DNA of 56,716 nt, from positions 1-56,716 of the forward strand of contig CAYOZB010000002.1 of the NCBI GenBank assembly GCA_964408365.1, written 5' to 3'. Origin of the DNA: an uncultured Halobacteriales archaeon (GTDB taxonomy: Archaea > Thermoplasmatota > E2 > JACPAO01). The position numbers were made by a program, and so were the translations under genes. A model generated the notes under the pieces. The model ran no database searches. It was not told the DNA's origin and saw only the letters and a program-made list of their open reading frames with translations. Within the stretch, counting starts at the first letter, position 1, and the number at the start of each line of letters is the position of its first letter. This document shows, piece after piece, positions 9,270-30,865 of the stretch.

Positions 9270-10172
9270 ATGCAAAAGAGCCTCCCCGTCTTCGCCCTTG
9301 TCGCCTCCCTGTTGTTTGCCGGATGCGCAGGAGGCGACGCCAAGACGACCCCCACGTCGTCCCCCGACAGCCCGACGGGCCTCAAGGAAGTCGATTTCGA
9401 CGGCGACGGCGGATCGATCCAGGGAAGCGTGACCGACAGCCAAGTGGTCCCGATCGCGGGAGCGCAGGTCGCCCTCGACGAGCTTGGCGTCGTCCAGAGC
9501 GACGCCGACGGCGCATTCCGATTCCAGAACGTCCCGCCCGGATCACACACGATCTACGCGTCCGCACTCGGCTTTTCGTCGGCGGGGAAGAAGATCGAGG
9601 TGGTCGCAGGCGAAACGACGACCGTGGCATTCCTCTTGGAGGAGCTCGCTGTCGAGGAAGGCTACGTGTTGATCGACCAGAACGAAGGTCACATCTGCCT
9701 TCAGGTGGGCATCGCTCACCCGACCGGTGCGACGCCAGGCGTTTACGTCAATTTCGGGAACCTCATGTGCCCGAACGCGGGCCTCATCTTCATCGGATTC
9801 GAGATCGACCCCGGCATCCAGGCGATCGTGACGGAGATGGTCTGGCAGCAGACCTCCGGGGTCACGTCGCGTGAACTTCGGATCGAGAATTGGCAAGGCG
9901 GGGCTCGCAGCGGAGCCTTCACCTTCGACCACCGGTACGGCAGCGCAGCCGGAGCCAGCCCGGTCGTCCTTCGGTACGGACTGGGCGATGGCGAAGCGTT
10001 CGGCGGGGTCACGAACGAGACCGCAGCCGTCGACAACGCGGTCATTGTCCCACCCGACACGAGCAAACCCGGGGGCCTGAACATCGTCTTCGACCAGCGC
10101 ACGACGATCTACAACTCCATGTTCTACGGACTCGTCCCCGACGAGACCTACTCGTCGCTCCCCGACGCGTAA
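9270..10172 (+). CDS. secreted lipoprotein, CarboxypepD_reg-like domain plus PDA-tail domain (family member A)
   Basis: Lipobox LLFAGC. GSIQGSVTDSQVVPIAGAQVALD...DADGAFRFQNVPPGSHTIYASALGF matches the carboxypeptidase regulatory-like fold pattern. Ends ...TIYNSMFYGLVPDETYSSLPDA-stop. Confidence 0.7.
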   Translation: MQKSLPVFALVASLLFAGCAGGDAKTTPTSSPDSPTGLKEVDFDGDGGSIQGSVTDSQVVPIAGAQVALDELGVVQSDADGAFRFQNVPPGSHTIYASALGFSSAGKKIEVVAGETTTVAFLLEELAVEEGYVLIDQNEGHICLQVGIAHPTGATPGVYVNFGNLMCPNAGLIFIGFEIDPGIQAIVTEMVWQQTSGVTSRELRIENWQGGARSGAFTFDHRYGSAAGASPVVLRYGLGDGEAFGGVTNETAAVDNAVIVPPDTSKPGGLNIVFDQRTTIYNSMFYGLVPDETYSSLPDA

Positions 10173-17730: not shown

Positions 17731-17855
17731 GTCCCATCCGGTCAAGCGTCGACCGCGTTGGACCCTTCCCGGCATGGAAACAGTAGGACCAGCCGTACTT
17801 GACCCGGCGACGACATGTGCTAAATACCAGAGCCGGAGAATTCGGGCCGATCGGC

Positions 17856-18731
17856 ATGCGGGCACTGGCATTAATGGTGGTATTGGGCGTCGTATTCTCG
17901 GGCTGCGTCGCCAGCGACGCATCAGGTGACCCGAAAGCGGACTCCGTCGACCCGTCCGTCGTCGCACCGCCGAGTGACACCGAAGGCCAGATCCGCGGCA
18001 CCATCACCGACGATTCCCTCGCCCCGATCGCGGGAGCCCAGATCGGAATCCTCAACTCCGACCCACAAGTCGTCGTCTCGACCAACGCCGCCGGCCAATT
18101 CGCGATGGTGGGCCTCCTCCCGGGCACCTACGCGGTCGCAGCCCAATCCCTCGGTCACGAGAGCGCAACCCGCTCCGTCGAGGTTGCAGCCGGAGAAGCC
18201 ACCGAGGTCAACTTTGTACTCACCCCGGTCGCCATCGCCAGCGAAGCCCGCTACCAGACACTCATCGGGGAGGGGTACTTCGCCTGCGGCGCATACCTCG
18301 TCGTCACTTCGTGGGGCAACCTCCACGCGTGCGTCTTCGACGAACACAAACCTCGCTTCGTCTTCGAAGTCGACCGGACGGATCTGAAAGGAATCATGCA
18401 GGAAGTCGTCTGGACACAATCCTCCGGCCTGACCTCGCAGGAACTCGCGGTCCGCCTCCAGTACGGCGAACCCGTCTGCGATCCCTTCTGCTCTGAGGCC
18501 GACATGTACGCCGACGAAACCGGCTCCAGCCCCGTCCGCATCTACACGGACATGGACGGCGAGCTCGATGACAAGGGCGATGCCGCCGTTCACAAGCTCT
18601 CCTCGCTCACTTTCCCTGATGGCGACGAGACCCCAGTCCTGGTCTTCCAACAACGCATGACCCACTACGTGACCATGTTCTGGGGCGAAAAAAGCAACCT
18701 CGAAGACTTCTCGGCCATGCCGGACGCGTAA
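17856..18731 (+). CDS. secreted lipoprotein, CarboxypepD_reg-like domain plus PDA-tail domain (family member B)
   Basis: ATG at 17856 gives MRALALMVVLGVVFSGC (lipobox). GQIRGTITDDSLAPIAGAQIGIL...AAGQFAMVGLLPGTYAVAAQSLGH. Ends ...THYVTMFWGEKSNLEDFSAMPDA-stop. TAAATA box at 17821-17826. Confidence 0.7.
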   Translation: MRALALMVVLGVVFSGCVASDASGDPKADSVDPSVVAPPSDTEGQIRGTITDDSLAPIAGAQIGILNSDPQVVVSTNAAGQFAMVGLLPGTYAVAAQSLGHESATRSVEVAAGEATEVNFVLTPVAIASEARYQTLIGEGYFACGAYLVVTSWGNLHACVFDEHKPRFVFEVDRTDLKGIMQEVVWTQSSGLTSQELAVRLQYGEPVCDPFCSEADMYADETGSSPVRIYTDMDGELDDKGDAAVHKLSSLTFPDGDETPVLVFQQRMTHYVTMFWGEKSNLEDFSAMPDA

Positions 18732-25069: not shown

Positions 25070-26017
25070 TCAGTGCGTCCACGTCGTGTCGAGAAGCACA
25101 TCGGGCGCGGGACCGATCGTCATTGTGCGATCAAACGTCTGGAACAACACCGCGGCGCCCGTGTAGCCGTAATGTTCGACGCCGGGGACATTCACGCCCT
25201 CAGCAACGGGTTGATCCTTCGTGTGTGCAAACGCGCGGGCGTTCTCGTTGACGACCCAGTGCTCCGCCGGAGCCGTGACCGTGTGCGTAAAGTCCAGGGA
25301 ACGCGGCCGGAACTTTTCTTCCTCGCCTTGCGACTCGTGACCGTGGTCTTCCATGGTGCTTACGGGGAACCAGAACCGTGTGTCCGAAAGTTCCAACGCG
25401 CGATATTCCTTGAGCCCAGCGAAGGTCTCGAATTTTCCGTGGCTCGTGTCCTGCATCACAGTGTGGATCACGTCGCTGCCGCCGACCCATTCGATGGTGG
25501 CGCCGATCGTGTGCGACACGTGGAAGCCAGGGCCCTTGGTGAGGATCTCCTCGATGTCAGGATCGTTGAACGATAGGTCCGCGAGGATGAATTGCCGCGT
25601 CACGGTGCCATCGTCCCAAGGCGGCGGCTTCACTTTGACGCCGACCCAGCCCCACATGAGCGTCGTCTTTGCGCCTTCGTAATCGTACGTGTCGCAGATC
25701 ACGGACATGTGCCAGATGCCGGTCGCGGGTCCGGTGATCGGATTTCCGTAAGAACCGAAGAACGGGTTGCCCATGTCGTCGCGGATGTCCTCGGCCTCCC
25801 AAGGCTCCGGGACCATCGGATTATCGGCGATGTTGTACATGGAAACAGAGCCGGCTTCGACGCATTTTCCCATCCCGACCGTGAAGCCTGCAAGGTCGAT
25901 GTGATCCATCGCCTGCTCGGCCAACGCTTCGGGATCGATCGGCAGGTTGTCGAGACAGCCAGCAAACACGCCCGCGACGAAAATGGAAACGACGGTCAGC
26001 GCCGGAAATCGACGCAT
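25070..26017 (-). CDS. lipoprotein, no recognised domain (possible CxE-family member)
   Basis: ATG at 26017 gives MRRFPALTVVSIFVAGVFAGC (lipobox). 315 aa. 11-nt gap to the Kelch gene. Confidence 0.55.
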   Translation of the reverse strand: MRRFPALTVVSIFVAGVFAGCLDNLPIDPEALAEQAMDHIDLAGFTVGMGKCVEAGSVSMYNIADNPMVPEPWEAEDIRDDMGNPFFGSYGNPITGPATGIWHMSVICDTYDYEGAKTTLMWGWVGVKVKPPPWDDGTVTRQFILADLSFNDPDIEEILTKGPGFHVSHTIGATIEWVGGSDVIHTVMQDTSHGKFETFAGLKEYRALELSDTRFWFPVSTMEDHGHESQGEEEKFRPRSLDFTHTVTAPAEHWVVNENARAFAHTKDQPVAEGVNVPGVEHYGYTGAAVLFQTFDRTMTIGPAPDVLLDTTWTH

Positions 26018-26141
26018 GGAATCACCTAACTGCGCAACCATATGCCCCCTCAAACAGCTTCCGCTATGCCGTATTTACCGCGGAGGGCGGGCGTCGAAAC
26101 GCGTAACTAGCGCTCGTCGGATTCAACCCGCGGGGTCTACG

Positions 26142-27134
26142 ATGAACTGGTTCTCCGCGTCCGCGGTTGTAGTGATGGTCGCCTGTTCCGCATGCCTCGC
26201 CCCCGGCGCGGCGACGGATGCAAGACCGCCGGACATCAAGGTCGACGCCGAAACCGGGGCGATCTCCGGCTCTGTCATCACACTCGACCTCCAACCGGTC
26301 TTGGGCGCGACGGCGACGGTGGTCGGCACACCTATCACCACGACCACGGACGAAGCGGGACGGTTCATCCTCGGATTCGTGCCGCCGGGGAACCAACGCG
26401 TGCGGCTCGAGTTTCCTGGATTCCAACCGGAAGAGCGGCAGACCGTCGTGGAGCCCGGGGAAACGACACCAGAATTGTTGTTTACGCTCGTCGAGATCGG
26501 CCGCGTGGTCCCCTACCACACGACCACCATCCACAAAGTGCTCGTGAGTGGATACTCCTTCACGGTGCCAAAGGACTGCATCTACGTGACGCCAGAGTAC
26601 AAGTCGTGCCAAGGATCGTTGTCGGATTGCAACCCGGACGAATGCGAAATCCATTACGGACACTGCGGCGACGACGGCGACTACTCCAATTGGGGCTGCG
26701 ACTTCGGCCTCGGATGGAAAACGATCGTCGCCGAACTCGACTCCCAACCCTCCTCCGCCGTGACGGGCCACGGCTGGAGCTTCACGGTGCTCGGTCCGAA
26801 CGTGTCGCGCGCGGGAGGCGATTCTGGCGCCGCGGACAATGGCGAGAAACGTGCGTGGCGGACGGTCGCCCGAGCCCCCATCTACACGTGGATCGACCAG
26901 GCCGAATTGGAGCGACGGCAAGTCCTGGAGCAAGATTGGTGCGGCGGCATCGACATCGCTCCCGGGCGCTGCGACTGGGTCTGGCGCGTGTTCCCTGGAC
27001 CTTGCGAGATCCAAAGCTGCGACTTCCCTGCCGGAAACATCGGCTTCATGCAAGAACAGGCCGCGACGATCTATTTCTCGTACTTCATGCACGAGCCCGC
27101 GCCGCCCGAATGGAGCGCTCGTCCGGATGCTTAG
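26142..27134 (+). CDS. secreted (lipo)protein, CarboxypepD_reg-like domain plus Cys-rich PDA-tail domain (family member C)
   Basis: ATG at 26142 gives MNWFSASAVVVMVACSAC. GAISGSVITLDLQPVLGATATVVG...DEAGRFILGFVPPGNQRVRLEFPGF. Ends ...TIYFSYFMHEPAPPEWSARPDA-stop. Its stop overlaps the stop of the convergent DASS gene. Confidence 0.7.
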   Translation: MNWFSASAVVVMVACSACLAPGAATDARPPDIKVDAETGAISGSVITLDLQPVLGATATVVGTPITTTTDEAGRFILGFVPPGNQRVRLEFPGFQPEERQTVVEPGETTPELLFTLVEIGRVVPYHTTTIHKVLVSGYSFTVPKDCIYVTPEYKSCQGSLSDCNPDECEIHYGHCGDDGDYSNWGCDFGLGWKTIVAELDSQPSSAVTGHGWSFTVLGPNVSRAGGDSGAADNGEKRAWRTVARAPIYTWIDQAELERRQVLEQDWCGGIDIAPGRCDWVWRVFPGPCEIQSCDFPAGNIGFMQEQAATIYFSYFMHEPAPPEWSARPDA

Positions 27135-28576
27135 CGCACGACGCTCACGATCACGTACACGACGACCGTGATCACGACGATGCTGACGAGATTCATCAGA
27201 AAGCCGACGCGGGCCATCTTTCCCAAAGTGAATTCGCCCGAGCCGTAGACGATCGCGTTTGAGGGCGTGCCGACCGGCATCATGAAGGCGCAGCTTGCGC
27301 CGAAGGCGATCGGGAACGCGAGGAACCACGCGTCCCGTCCGACGGCAATCACCAGCGCGCCGGCAATCGGTAGGAGGGTCGCGGCGGTGGCGGTGTTGCT
27401 CATGATCTCGGACGCGAACACGGCGACGATCGCGAGGATCAACATCAGGAGGATGAGGGACAGGGCGCCGAGTCCGCCCAGGCGGTCCGCGCCCCACGTC
27501 GCGAGGCCGGAGCGTTGGATGCCGGCGGCGAGGCTGAGCCCGCCGCCGAAGAGAATCAGAAGTCCCCAGGGGACCCGCAAGGCGGTCTGCCAGTCGAGAA
27601 GGAATTCGCCGCGCCGCAGGTTGGTCGGCACGAGGAACGTCAGCAACGCCCCCAGCATGGCCACGCCGGTCTCGTCGAGGAGGAAGCCGGGGATGCGGGA
27701 CAAGAAGGGAAGCGTGACCCACAAGGCCGCGGTTAACAAAAAAATAACGGCGATGGAGATCTCCGCGCGGCTCATCGGCCCGAGTTTCTCTTTCTCGTCG
27801 CGGATGTCCTCGTGCCATCCATCGATGGCGCCGCGGGGGACGCGGAACGCGACGCGCGTGAGGATGAACCAGGCCGCGGGCAGCAGGATGAGGATCAGCG
27901 GAACGCCGAGTTTCATCCAGTCGAGGAAACTGGGCCGTTCTCCGAAGGACTGGTCGAGGAACGCGACGGTCAGCGCGTTCGGGACGGTGCCGACGAGTGT
28001 TCCCAACCCGCCGATCAATGTGGCGTAGCCGATCCCGAGCATGAGGGCGGCGCCGAATTCGCCGCGGCCTTTGCCGACGAGTTGGATGATGGAGACGCCG
28101 ATCGGGAACATTAGGAGTACGGTGGAGGTGTTGCTGACCCACATGCTCATGACGGCCGCCGCGACCATCACCCCGCCGACGATGCCCGCGGGGCTTTCGC
28201 TCGCGGCGCCCAGGATCACCAGCGCGATGCGTCGATGGAGCCCGTGTCGCTCCACGGCGAGTGCGATCATCATTCCGCCCAACAGGAGGAAAATGACGGG
28301 ATCCGCGTAGGGCGAAGCGGCTTGGTTGATCTCGCCTAAACCGAGAAGCGGGATCAGGATGAGGGGGACGAGTGCAGTCGCGGCGATCGGGAGGGCTTCG
28401 GTGATCCACCACGTCGCCATGAGGAGCGCGAGGCCGAGGACGTTCCAGCCTTGCCGGGAAAGGCCCTCGGGGGGCGACGAGAGAAGGACAATAACGAGGA
28501 GCGCAGGACCGAGGACGAGTCCGATCCTCGGACGGAGACCAAAGCGAGGCGCTGCTTCCTTCTCCACCTCCGCCAC
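27131..28576 (-). CDS. DASS/SLC13-family anion:sodium symporter (di/tricarboxylate or sulfate type)
   Basis: 481 aa, polytopic. WWITEALPIAATALVPLILIPLLG and FMMPVGTPSNAIVYG hairpin motifs. Confidence 0.85.
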   Translation of the reverse strand: MAEVEKEAAPRFGLRPRIGLVLGPALLVIVLLSSPPEGLSRQGWNVLGLALLMATWWITEALPIAATALVPLILIPLLGLGEINQAASPYADPVIFLLLGGMMIALAVERHGLHRRIALVILGAASESPAGIVGGVMVAAAVMSMWVSNTSTVLLMFPIGVSIIQLVGKGRGEFGAALMLGIGYATLIGGLGTLVGTVPNALTVAFLDQSFGERPSFLDWMKLGVPLILILLPAAWFILTRVAFRVPRGAIDGWHEDIRDEKEKLGPMSRAEISIAVIFLLTAALWVTLPFLSRIPGFLLDETGVAMLGALLTFLVPTNLRRGEFLLDWQTALRVPWGLLILFGGGLSLAAGIQRSGLATWGADRLGGLGALSLILLMLILAIVAVFASEIMSNTATAATLLPIAGALVIAVGRDAWFLAFPIAFGASCAFMMPVGTPSNAIVYGSGEFTLGKMARVGFLMNLVSIVVITVVVYVIVSVVR

Positions 28577-28652: not shown

Positions 28653-29042
28653 TTGGTGTCGGAACGCGGAGAAGATCCGCCCCGTTTCGTCGTGGGCGAC
28701 GGTCGAGAACTCGGCGTTCTCAGCGGGCGCGGCGGCGATCGCCCATTCGAGCACCGTGTGGGCGATCAGAGCAATTGCGTCACCACCGCTTGTTACTCGG
28801 AACAGGTCGGCAACTCGCCCGTGCGGATCGAATTCCGACCAGGGCTCCGGTGGCACGATGCGGATCCGTACGAGCCGTTTCCCGGTGACGCGGGGCATGC
28901 GTTCAACTTGTACCTGATGCCGCCGTTTGGGACCGCCGAGACCCCGTTGTTGCTGTACTTGGATCAACGGACGGACACGTTTCTGACGTTCTTCTACAAC
29001 CGTGAAGGTTCGCCCGGCTTCACGGCTTTGCCCGACGCTTGA
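28653..29042 (+). pseudogene. 5'-truncated relic of a PDA-tail family gene (member D)
   Basis: Only the C-terminal ~130 codons lie outside the DASS gene. VGNSPVRIEFRPG matches TGSSPVRIYTDMDG of member B, and the relic ends ...DTFLTFFYNREGSPGFTALPDA-stop. No signal peptide or CarboxypepD_reg part. Only TTG/GTG starts (28653/28656) are available. Confidence 0.45.
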
Positions 29043-29281
29043 TCAGCTCGGCTTCGGCGGCGACCGGTTTCGCTGGGCCGAATTCTTTCCGGCGTTGCTT
29101 CCGACGTCGTGGACCATCCGACCATTTTTTCGGCGAGGCATCCCACCATCGAAAAGGCCGGGAACGTGGAAAGATGTTCGGCGGAGGCTTGCCGTGGAAC
29201 ATCAGGTTCTTCTAGAAGTCCTTCATCCGAAGCGCCGTGGCCGACGCCCCCGCATCGAGGCAACCCAACCGACCGCTTGCC

Positions 29282-29458: not shown

Positions 29459-29551
29459 GCGCAGTCGGCAAACGCGGGCGGCACGACGACGTGCGCGAAG
29501 TTGGTTCTGAGCACATGTATGCTGACCGGAGCCGATTGCCCAGCGGCCCGT

Positions 29552-30331
29552 TTACTGGAGGGGTGGTTGGGGCTGGAATTCGGGCGGACTGGAAGGCTCC
29601 GGCGACGTCGCGGGGGCAGGCGGTGGGGGTTGTGGTGCAGAGACCAGCGGCGGCGCCGGGGCACTCCAGTTCGCTTTCGTCGTGTCGATCACGATCGTCT
29701 TCGCGATCCGGTCGCTCGCACGTTGGTCGTCGTTCTTGAACGCGACCAAGTAGAAGATGACGTCAAGCAACAACAGGAAGGGCAAGGACTTCGCGATGTT
29801 GCGGATGAGCGCTCCTTCCATCGTGACGGGCCGTCCGTCGACCATCACTGTCCGCAGGTTGAAGACCATCTTTCCGATCGTCTGGCCGGTCTTCATCTCG
29901 AAGAGCACGAAGTAGCCGAACGCGATCGCGACCCAGGCGATGTTCCCGAACGGCCCGAAACCGACCACCACAAACATCCAGCCGATCGTCATGTAGAACA
30001 GTCCGGTGAGCACGACCAGGACCACGACGTCGACGAGGAACGCGAGGAACCGTTTCGCGAAACCCGCGCGCGGGTTCGCGGAGACGCGCGCTTGGAGGAA
30101 CGCGGCGGAGACGCCGGGAGCGCCGCCGAGTTCGGTGACGACGGCTTGGGTGTCCGCGAGCGTGATGTATTCGCCACCACGGTCTTCGACGCGGCGTTCG
30201 GCCTTCTCGTGGAGGTGGCTGAGGATCTCCCAATGCAGGCTGCTTCGTTGTTCCGGGGCGAGTCCCGCGTTCTGCAGGATTCCGGAGACGAATTCGTGGC
30301 TCCACGCGCGTGCGTGCTCGTCCATCTTCAT
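29552..30331 (-). CDS. RDD-family membrane protein with N-terminal helical (DUF1700/HAAS-like) sensor region
   Basis: ATG at 30331 overlaps the padR stop (ATGA). RDD core FAKRFLAFLVDVVV...GQTIGKMVFNLR...SDRIAKTIV. Pro-rich C-terminal tail. Confidence 0.7.
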   Translation of the reverse strand: MKMDEHARAWSHEFVSGILQNAGLAPEQRSSLHWEILSHLHEKAERRVEDRGGEYITLADTQAVVTELGGAPGVSAAFLQARVSANPRAGFAKRFLAFLVDVVVLVVLTGLFYMTIGWMFVVVGFGPFGNIAWVAIAFGYFVLFEMKTGQTIGKMVFNLRTVMVDGRPVTMEGALIRNIAKSLPFLLLLDVIFYLVAFKNDDQRASDRIAKTIVIDTTKANWSAPAPPLVSAPQPPPPAPATSPEPSSPPEFQPQPPLQ

Positions 30332-30744: not shown

Positions 30745-30865
30745 GTCGGGCGGTCAGGAAGAGTACTGTGGCAGCCCGCATACCTTTCCAGGAAAGGTAG
30801 ATGCTGAGACGATATAGATGTTTCGGGCAGCTTGTCGTTGAGGAATTCCGTGGCAGGCCGCGTGC

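Follow-up and report, generated by a model that had tools for sequence, protein, structure and literature searches.

A paralogous family of predicted archaeal surface lipoproteins with an unnamed beta-sandwich domain, whose shared PDA ending probably closes the domain fold

Archaeal lipoproteins with a lipobox are substrates of AliA and AliB in Haloferax volcanii (PMC12462473). At the opposite end of archaeal surface proteins, PGF-CTERM/archaeosortase signals combine a conserved Pro-containing motif with a following transmembrane helix and a basic cluster, and a transthyretin-like CarboxypepD_reg domain is found in carboxypeptidases N, D, and M. The locus described here is a contig stretch of 56,716 nt from an uncultured Halobacteriales archaeon (hereafter called the window), in which four open reading frames end in the tripeptide PDA directly before the stop codon. 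The original prediction regarded these as paralogous lipoproteins of one architecture and took their invariant tripeptide as a sign of selection on the free terminus itself, e.g., as a sorting or processing tag or a docking peptide. In our analysis the tail is probably a structural segment that closes the last domain, not a sorting or processing tag, and genes A, B, and C encode paralogous, predicted extracellular proteins.

All four open reading frames were confirmed on the plus strand at 9270–10172 (A), 17856–18731 (B), 26142–27134 (C), and 28653–29042 (D), each with PDA before the stop codon. Their features are as follows.

9270–10172, plus strand: gene A, 300 aa, stop codon TAA (open reading frame; orthologues P0002–P0005)
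9324–9326, plus strand: Cys19 of gene A, in the lipobox ...LFAGC of its signal peptide (MQKSLPVFALVASLLFAGC, judged by inspection)
between lipobox and CarboxypepD_reg, plus strand: Ser/Thr/Pro-rich linker of gene A
9414–9638, plus strand: CarboxypepD_reg domain of gene A, residues 49–123 (PF13620, E = 2.4e-17, 63.5 bits)
9645–10169, plus strand: C-terminal beta-sandwich domain (C-domain) of gene A, approximately residues 126–300 (nine strands in the AlphaFold model)
9825–9884, plus strand: conserved internal block of gene A, IVTEMVWQQTSGVTSRELRI, containing the strongly conserved Glu189 and Trp192
10137–10169, plus strand: C-terminal tail of gene A, PDETYSSLPDA, probable domain-closing motif (column frequencies, pLDDT ~94)
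17856–18731, plus strand: gene B, 291 aa from the ATG at 17856, stop codon TAA (open reading frame)
17904–17906, plus strand: Cys17 of gene B, in the lipobox ...VFSGC (MRALALMVVLGVVFSGC, judged by inspection)
17988–18224, plus strand: CarboxypepD_reg domain of gene B, residues 45–123 (PF13620, E = 4e-18, 65.9 bits)
18231–18728, plus strand: C-domain of gene B
26142–27134, plus strand: gene C, 330 aa, stop codon TAG (open reading frame; orthologues P0006–P0012 and P0014)
26193–26195, plus strand: Cys18 of gene C, in the lipobox ...ACSAC (MNWFSASAVVVMVACSAC, judged by inspection)
26262–26489, plus strand: CarboxypepD_reg domain of gene C, residues 41–116 (PF13620, E = 3e-13, 50.3 bits)
26496–27131, plus strand: C-domain of gene C, cysteine-rich variant
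28653–28760, plus strand: 5′ part of the called D reading frame, not family-derived (across a deletion junction, opposite the 3′ remnant of the neighbouring minus-strand gene)
28761–29042, plus strand: relic D, the last 93 codons and stop codon TGA of a family gene (blastn against L002)

The terminal codons read CCC GAC GCG TAA in gene A, CCG GAC GCG TAA in gene B, CCG GAT GCT TAG in gene C, and CCC GAC GCT TGA in relic D. Three different stop codons are thus in use, as had been noted, and the codons of the tripeptide differ synonymously, which supports purifying selection on the tail at the amino-acid level. Among all stop-to-stop open reading frames of at least 100 aa in the six frames of the window, the PDA ending was exclusive to these four loci. 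Relatedness of the C-terminal domains was evident in pairwise BLASTP between A and B (E = 2.6e-13), A and D (2.3e-8), and B and D (7.5e-8), and was marginal between C and A (0.008, over the last 33 aa only). Gene C is nevertheless firmly grouped with the others because a local hmmsearch of the window with the family profile joined all four (C 2e-81, A 2.5e-60, B 9e-43, D 8e-27); in the same search of the whole window, no fifth locus matched. Overall identity among the copies is only about 22–34%, and the internal block (IVTEMVWQQTSG...) and the aromatic-rich last strand align across them. The proposed paralogous family, with its shared block and last strand, was therefore upheld, and the similarity among copies is statistically sound, by BLASTP for A, B, and D and by the profile for C.

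The predicted architecture, i.e., a lipobox, a CarboxypepD_reg domain, and a domain of about 180–200 aa, applies to A, B, and C, but not to the D relic, which has neither a signal peptide nor a CarboxypepD_reg domain; in A, B, and C, the part behind CarboxypepD_reg measures about 170–210 aa. A, B, and C exceed the PF13620 gathering cut-off of 32.3 bits and, by inspection, fit the lipobox pattern ...[AGS]-C after a basic n-region and a hydrophobic h-region. PF14686 (fn3_3, PL4 domain II) also matches gene A (E = 1e-5), and an alternative upstream start (TTG at 17799) is open for gene B. A weak NCBIfam match covers residues 7–55 of A (9288–9434), namely NF058595, 'lipo-invert putative C-terminal anchoring domain' (E = 0.003, 17.9 bits against a cut-off of 37); this match on the signal peptide and linker is probably compositional, reflecting a hydrophobic segment followed by a Ser/Thr/Pro-rich linker.

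The family genes of the window are scattered singly among unrelated housekeeping genes. Gene A follows the gene for SerRS and precedes those for a Peripla_BP_2 protein and UvrC, and gene B follows the gene for HMG-CoA reductase and faces those for PyrI and PyrB; the order HMG-CoA reductase, B orthologue, PyrI is kept in L086. Gene C lies beside the genes of a divergent Kelch protein and an unnamed lipoprotein and faces a DASS transporter gene, after which come the D relic and the gene for an RDD protein. The gene order around the family loci is kept in L002 and L086. The stop codon TAG of gene C (27132–27134) shares nucleotides with that of the convergent DASS/Na_sulph_symp transporter gene (27131–28576, minus strand), and a comparable overlap of the two gene ends occurs in L002; this arrangement may constrain the last codon of subfamily C at the nucleotide level as well. 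The unnamed lipoprotein (here E, 327 aa, 25070–26053, minus strand, predicted lipobox ...VFAGC, divergent from C) has no Pfam or NCBIfam match. Beside the Kelch beta-propeller gene, L002 and L086 have Pfam-less genes in the equivalent place, probably orthologues of the gene for E. Lipoprotein E was considered as a fifth family member and rejected, as it was unrelated by BLASTP and by hmmsearch of the window. The window has a GC content of 63% and holds many long spurious open reading frames on the opposite strand or in other frames, e.g., 26064–28412 (minus strand, 782 aa) over gene C and the transporter gene. A scan of the whole 56.7 kb returned neither tRNA genes nor Rfam matches at the gathering score.

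The origin of D was traced by comparison with L002. By blastn, positions 28761–29044 of the window correspond to L002 6625–6908, i.e., the last 284 bp of the gene for P0015, and the preceding 1777 bp of L002 (4848–6624), which comprise most of a 362-aa minus-strand neighbour and codons 1–208 of the D orthologue, are missing from the window. D has full-length orthologues in P0015 (301 aa), where a lipobox, CarboxypepD_reg, and the C-domain are all present, and in P0016 (291 aa). The earlier description of D as a relic family member consequently holds for 28761–29042, but not for 28653–28760, which lies beyond the junction of the 1.8 kb deletion. The relic shares 85% amino-acid identity with P0015 at a dN/dS of about 0.05, which dates the truncation as recent compared with the split between the two genomes.

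The window lacks in total three blocks of 0.6–1.8 kb that are present in the syntenic L002 (~78–81% identical nucleotides). The gap sites are at 28748–28761, 29533–29558, and 30745–30762 of the window, against L002 4848–6624, 7281–7884, and 9084–10131. In L002, these blocks contain the 362-aa gene, which has faint BNR matches, together with two thirds of the D orthologue from its 5′ end; the larger share of a gene for an Rce1-like (CPBP) protease; and a gene of 360 aa. The missing blocks suggest repeated deletions in the lineage of the window, or insertions in the other lineage.

For an estimate of the family beyond the window, 1.84 billion cluster representatives (clustered at 50% identity) were searched exhaustively with the profile, which yielded 391 proteins at E ≤ 1e-3, 66 of them at E ≤ 1e-10; a word-indexed search gave 18 clusters only. 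Nearly all of the 391 members are 280–350 aa long, with a C-domain match that reaches within a few residues of the protein end, and almost all begin with a signal peptide ending in ...LAGC. Within 144 sequences, G18 and C19 of the lipobox are conserved in at least 90%. The few members with names in their sources are called 'hypothetical protein' or 'carboxypeptidase-like regulatory domain-containing protein' and stem from MAGs labelled Candidatus Thermoplasmatota, and matches among the GTDB species representatives carry the label 'uncultured Halobacteriales archaeon'. P0014 (labelled Candidatus Thermoplasmatota) is about 91% identical to gene C, whose subfamily has at least 10 additional invariant cysteines; a search for related loci with the subfamily-C alignment returned only a spurious match in Verrucomicrobiota. 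The closest SerRS (74% identity) stems from a groundwater 'Methanobacteriota archaeon' (L004), and no family member was present on that contig. The host of the window is thus an uncultured high-GC archaeon, probably related to Thermoplasmatota, and the family belongs to uncultured archaea of this probable affiliation. Elsewhere, family genes lie in pairs and triplets, arranged in tandem or divergently (contigs L084 6935–8981, L085 7018–10198, and L001 1–513 and 2001–2894).

Three architectures were observed: lipobox, CarboxypepD_reg, and C-domain; signal peptide and C-domain; and signal peptide with two C-domains. The C-domain thus stands behind a plain signal peptide without CarboxypepD_reg in P0060, P0083, and P0150 and occurs in two tandem copies in P0042, P0076, and P0132, which makes it an autonomous module. 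Neither the four proteins nor 11 isolated C-domains gave a Pfam or NCBIfam match for this domain at E ≤ 1, a C-domain profile searched against PDB sequences returned nothing significant (best E = 0.94), and no description of the family or of a PDA-type signal was found in the literature. What is new is the extracellular beta-sandwich domain, unnamed in Pfam and NCBIfam; the proteins themselves are already in public databases. With about 390 clusters, the C-domain could be defined as a family, the value of which would lie at the level of annotation, and its expansion into paralogues in uncultured archaea indicates that it is probably part of their cell envelope.

The invariance of the ending held for all four copies in the window, but not for the wider family. 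Whether homologues always terminate at PDA was a question raised by the original prediction, and only 50 of 164 inspected sequences from the profile search do so; others end in PDQ (11), PDS (7), PDT (6), PDG (5), ADA (4), or PDE (3), at least 5 end in ...LP, and some stop at ...IP. Endings of the form PDx together account for about 54% of the inspected sequences. Variation extends to close relatives: PDG is the ending of P0004, which shares 74% identity with A, PDT that of P0008, and PDS that of both P0012 and P0016. P0005 (41% identity with A) stops at ...ALP, and the TAG behind it lies within the contig. Longer endings also exist (PDPHEH, PDGHTP, ...GDPFPF, and P0073 with 15 extra residues), and in 11 proteins the sequence continues for 3–15 residues past the motif. 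In the profile alignments of 162 proteins, the number of residues past the conserved Pro was 2 in 121, 1 in 16, 0 in 11, 3 in 5, 5–6 in 5, and 15 in 1. The position of the stop is hence sharply peaked, with 76% of the proteins ending exactly two residues after Pro. PDA is the modal and probably the ancestral ending, and its presence in four of four loci is a sample of one genome whose nearest subfamilies mostly retain it.

Column conservation (weighted, alignment of 144 sequences) placed the tripeptide below the core of the domain: P298 reached 0.73, D299 0.59, and A300 0.35, compared to 0.99 for C167, 0.97 for P231, 0.94 for W192, 0.90 for F285, and 0.85 each for E189 and Q276. The remaining tail columns were conserved at 0.91 (aromatic F/Y/W), 0.93 (S/T), 0.70 (A), and 0.83 (L/V/I), i.e., the aromatic residue and the following Ser/Thr are better conserved than PDA itself.

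The strongest single argument on the role of the tail comes from proteins with two C-domains, three rather distant relatives in which the first domain keeps the tail internally: P0042 reads ...APEGYSPLPHA|DDREPY... (...FYHEPAPEGYSPLPHA|DDREPYVENNEW...), P0076 reads ...APLEAIPD|PWSEV... (...HYLEHAPLEAIPD|PWSEVRSW...), and P0132 reads ...APENATALP|VGVEEDEG... (...YYGEAAPENATALP|VGVEEDEG...). These internal tails align to profile positions 195–197 and are followed by a short linker and the next domain. As the block is kept at an internal position, it probably belongs to the domain fold and is not a terminal tag. The original prediction had named homologues that lack PDA or run on past it as evidence against its reading, and homologues of both kinds exist. 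Together with the internal copies, they speak against selection of the free terminus for a tag or docking function.

Structure prediction is in line with this. AlphaFold2 modelled the C-domain of A poorly from 18 sequences (pLDDT 73.8), and with 144 sequences the model of A reached a mean pLDDT of 90.3 and a pTM of 0.74. The modelled C-domain is all-beta with nine strands, of which the first (132–148) and the last (271–286) are long. Residues 287–300 have no regular secondary structure, with a pLDDT of about 94 for 291–300; the model thereby indicates an ordered segment, probably packed on the domain, and not a flexible tail. In Foldseek searches against PDB and BFVD, about 80 residues of the N-domain of A superposed at 1.3–1.8 Å on transthyretin-like domains from carboxypeptidases N, D, and M. 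Full-length A matched generic tandem beta-sandwich proteins (PL4 lyase 1nkg, BcpA, and SlaB) with an rmsd above 16 Å. No specific match to the C-domain was obtained in these two databases, as matches were driven by the N-domain or were generic tandem sandwiches.

According to the most probable reading, A, B, and C would be exported and probably anchored to a lipid through the lipobox cysteine, as their N-terminal sequences suggest. A Ser/Thr/Pro-rich stalk of about 25 residues may then hold out two beta-sandwich domains, the first a transthyretin-like CarboxypepD_reg domain and the second the predicted nine-strand, family-specific domain with one conserved cysteine pair (C143–C167 in A) and a conserved patch of E-x-x-W, Q, and an aromatic residue. 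The block of about 25 residues, Q-x4-Y-x3-FY-x-E-x-AP-x-x-[FYW]-[ST]-A-[LIV]-P-D-A, would form the last strand and the ordered closing segment of this second domain, and its conservation would be structural. The stop would follow directly after PDA because the C-domain is the last module of the protein. The family, its architecture, the variable ending, the internal copies of the tail, and its prediction as ordered are shown directly, and lipidation, surface exposure, and a disulphide are inferred. The conserved E189, W192, Q276, and Y223, the beta-sandwich fold, and the expansion into paralogues faintly hint at a putative binding role of the C-domain, whose partner might be a glycan or some other constituent of the envelope.

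The alternative that survives best accepts a structural tail and assigns an additional, specific role to the terminal Asp and the free carboxylate in the lipoprotein subfamily, so that the position of the stop itself would be selected; the terminus might latch onto the CarboxypepD_reg domain, be joined to it by a salt bridge, or take part in binding a metal or ligand. Such a role would account for the sharp peak of tail length at two residues and for the conservation of Asp (0.59) and Ala (0.35), both well above background. The pTM of 0.74 points to a definite placement of the two domains relative to each other, and the proteins without CarboxypepD_reg (P0060, P0083, and P0150) tend to end in ...IP or ...LP. 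However, in many members of the lipoprotein type Asp or Ala is missing or the tail differs in length by one to several residues, and a stop codon behind a terminal domain is expected to be stable by descent, since read-through adds long random extensions. We consider this alternative unlikely, though it deserves more credit than those below.

A free C-terminal PD[A] that serves as a sorting, processing, or docking tag and is read by a dedicated surface enzyme or receptor is quite improbable. The identical ending of the four window copies despite synonymous codon differences, the share of PDx endings, and the predominant stop two residues past Pro would all be compatible with a tag. Against it stand the differing last residues even in close orthologues, at least five independent clusters that end in ...LP, the proteins that run on for 3–15 residues, the internal copies in two-domain proteins, and a tail that is less conserved than the core and predicted to be ordered. 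Moreover, no processing enzyme recurs among the neighbours of the family genes in the neighbourhoods of the window, L001, L002, and L084–L089. The Rce1-like (CPBP) protease encoded near the D orthologue of L002 was considered as such an enzyme and rejected, as neither the window nor the other loci have its gene.

Slightly less credible still is the more far-reaching version, in which ...[FYW]-[ST]-A-[LIV]-P-D-A is a new C-terminal signal of archaeal surface lipoproteins that lacks a transmembrane helix and is read by an envelope factor for S-layer or glycan attachment or for trimming, with the internal copies as non-functional leftovers. If true, it would add a mechanism to the biogenesis of archaeal surface proteins, and the evidence argues against it. 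Finally, chance or recent gene conversion among the copies, for which nothing speaks except the shared tripeptide itself, can practically be dismissed: the copies are highly diverged overall, the orthologues of each copy on other contigs carry the same block, and the synonymous differences in the PDA codons together with the three different stop codons exclude a recent conversion.

The reading of the tail as a domain-closing segment leaves the following relations to described systems. With the CarboxypepD_reg proteins (carboxypeptidases N, D, and M), the family shares the N-domain, which in A superposes on 2nsm, 3mn8, and 1qmu over about 80 residues at 1.3–1.8 Å. The proteins described here differ in that they have no peptidase domain and carry a lipobox before, and an unnamed domain after, CarboxypepD_reg. 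Common to haloarchaeal lipoproteins and this family is the N-terminal signal peptide with a lipobox Gly/Ala-Cys, lipidation being predicted here from the sequence, whereas the mature part of the family proteins is unrelated to characterised ones. PGF-CTERM/archaeosortase signals have in common with the tail that a conserved, Pro-containing motif stands at the C-terminal end of a surface protein in archaea; the proposed distinction from them was borne out, since the family proteins typically end 0–2 residues past Pro, with no transmembrane helix or basic tail behind it, and no NCBIfam sorting-signal model matched the four proteins. Domains II/III of the PL4 rhamnogalacturonan lyase (1nkg), the BcpA pilin, and Sulfolobus SlaB were aligned by Foldseek over about 255–295 columns, covering both sandwiches in the same order, but at an rmsd of 16–25 Å, an identity of 10–13%, and a TM-score of about 0.25, with no sequence relationship to the C-domain and no catalytic domain in the family; judged from the model of A, this is a generic resemblance in topology only. 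The family thus consists of predicted archaeal surface lipoproteins built from beta-sandwich modules, one of them an unnamed domain, and does not constitute a new type of C-terminal signal.
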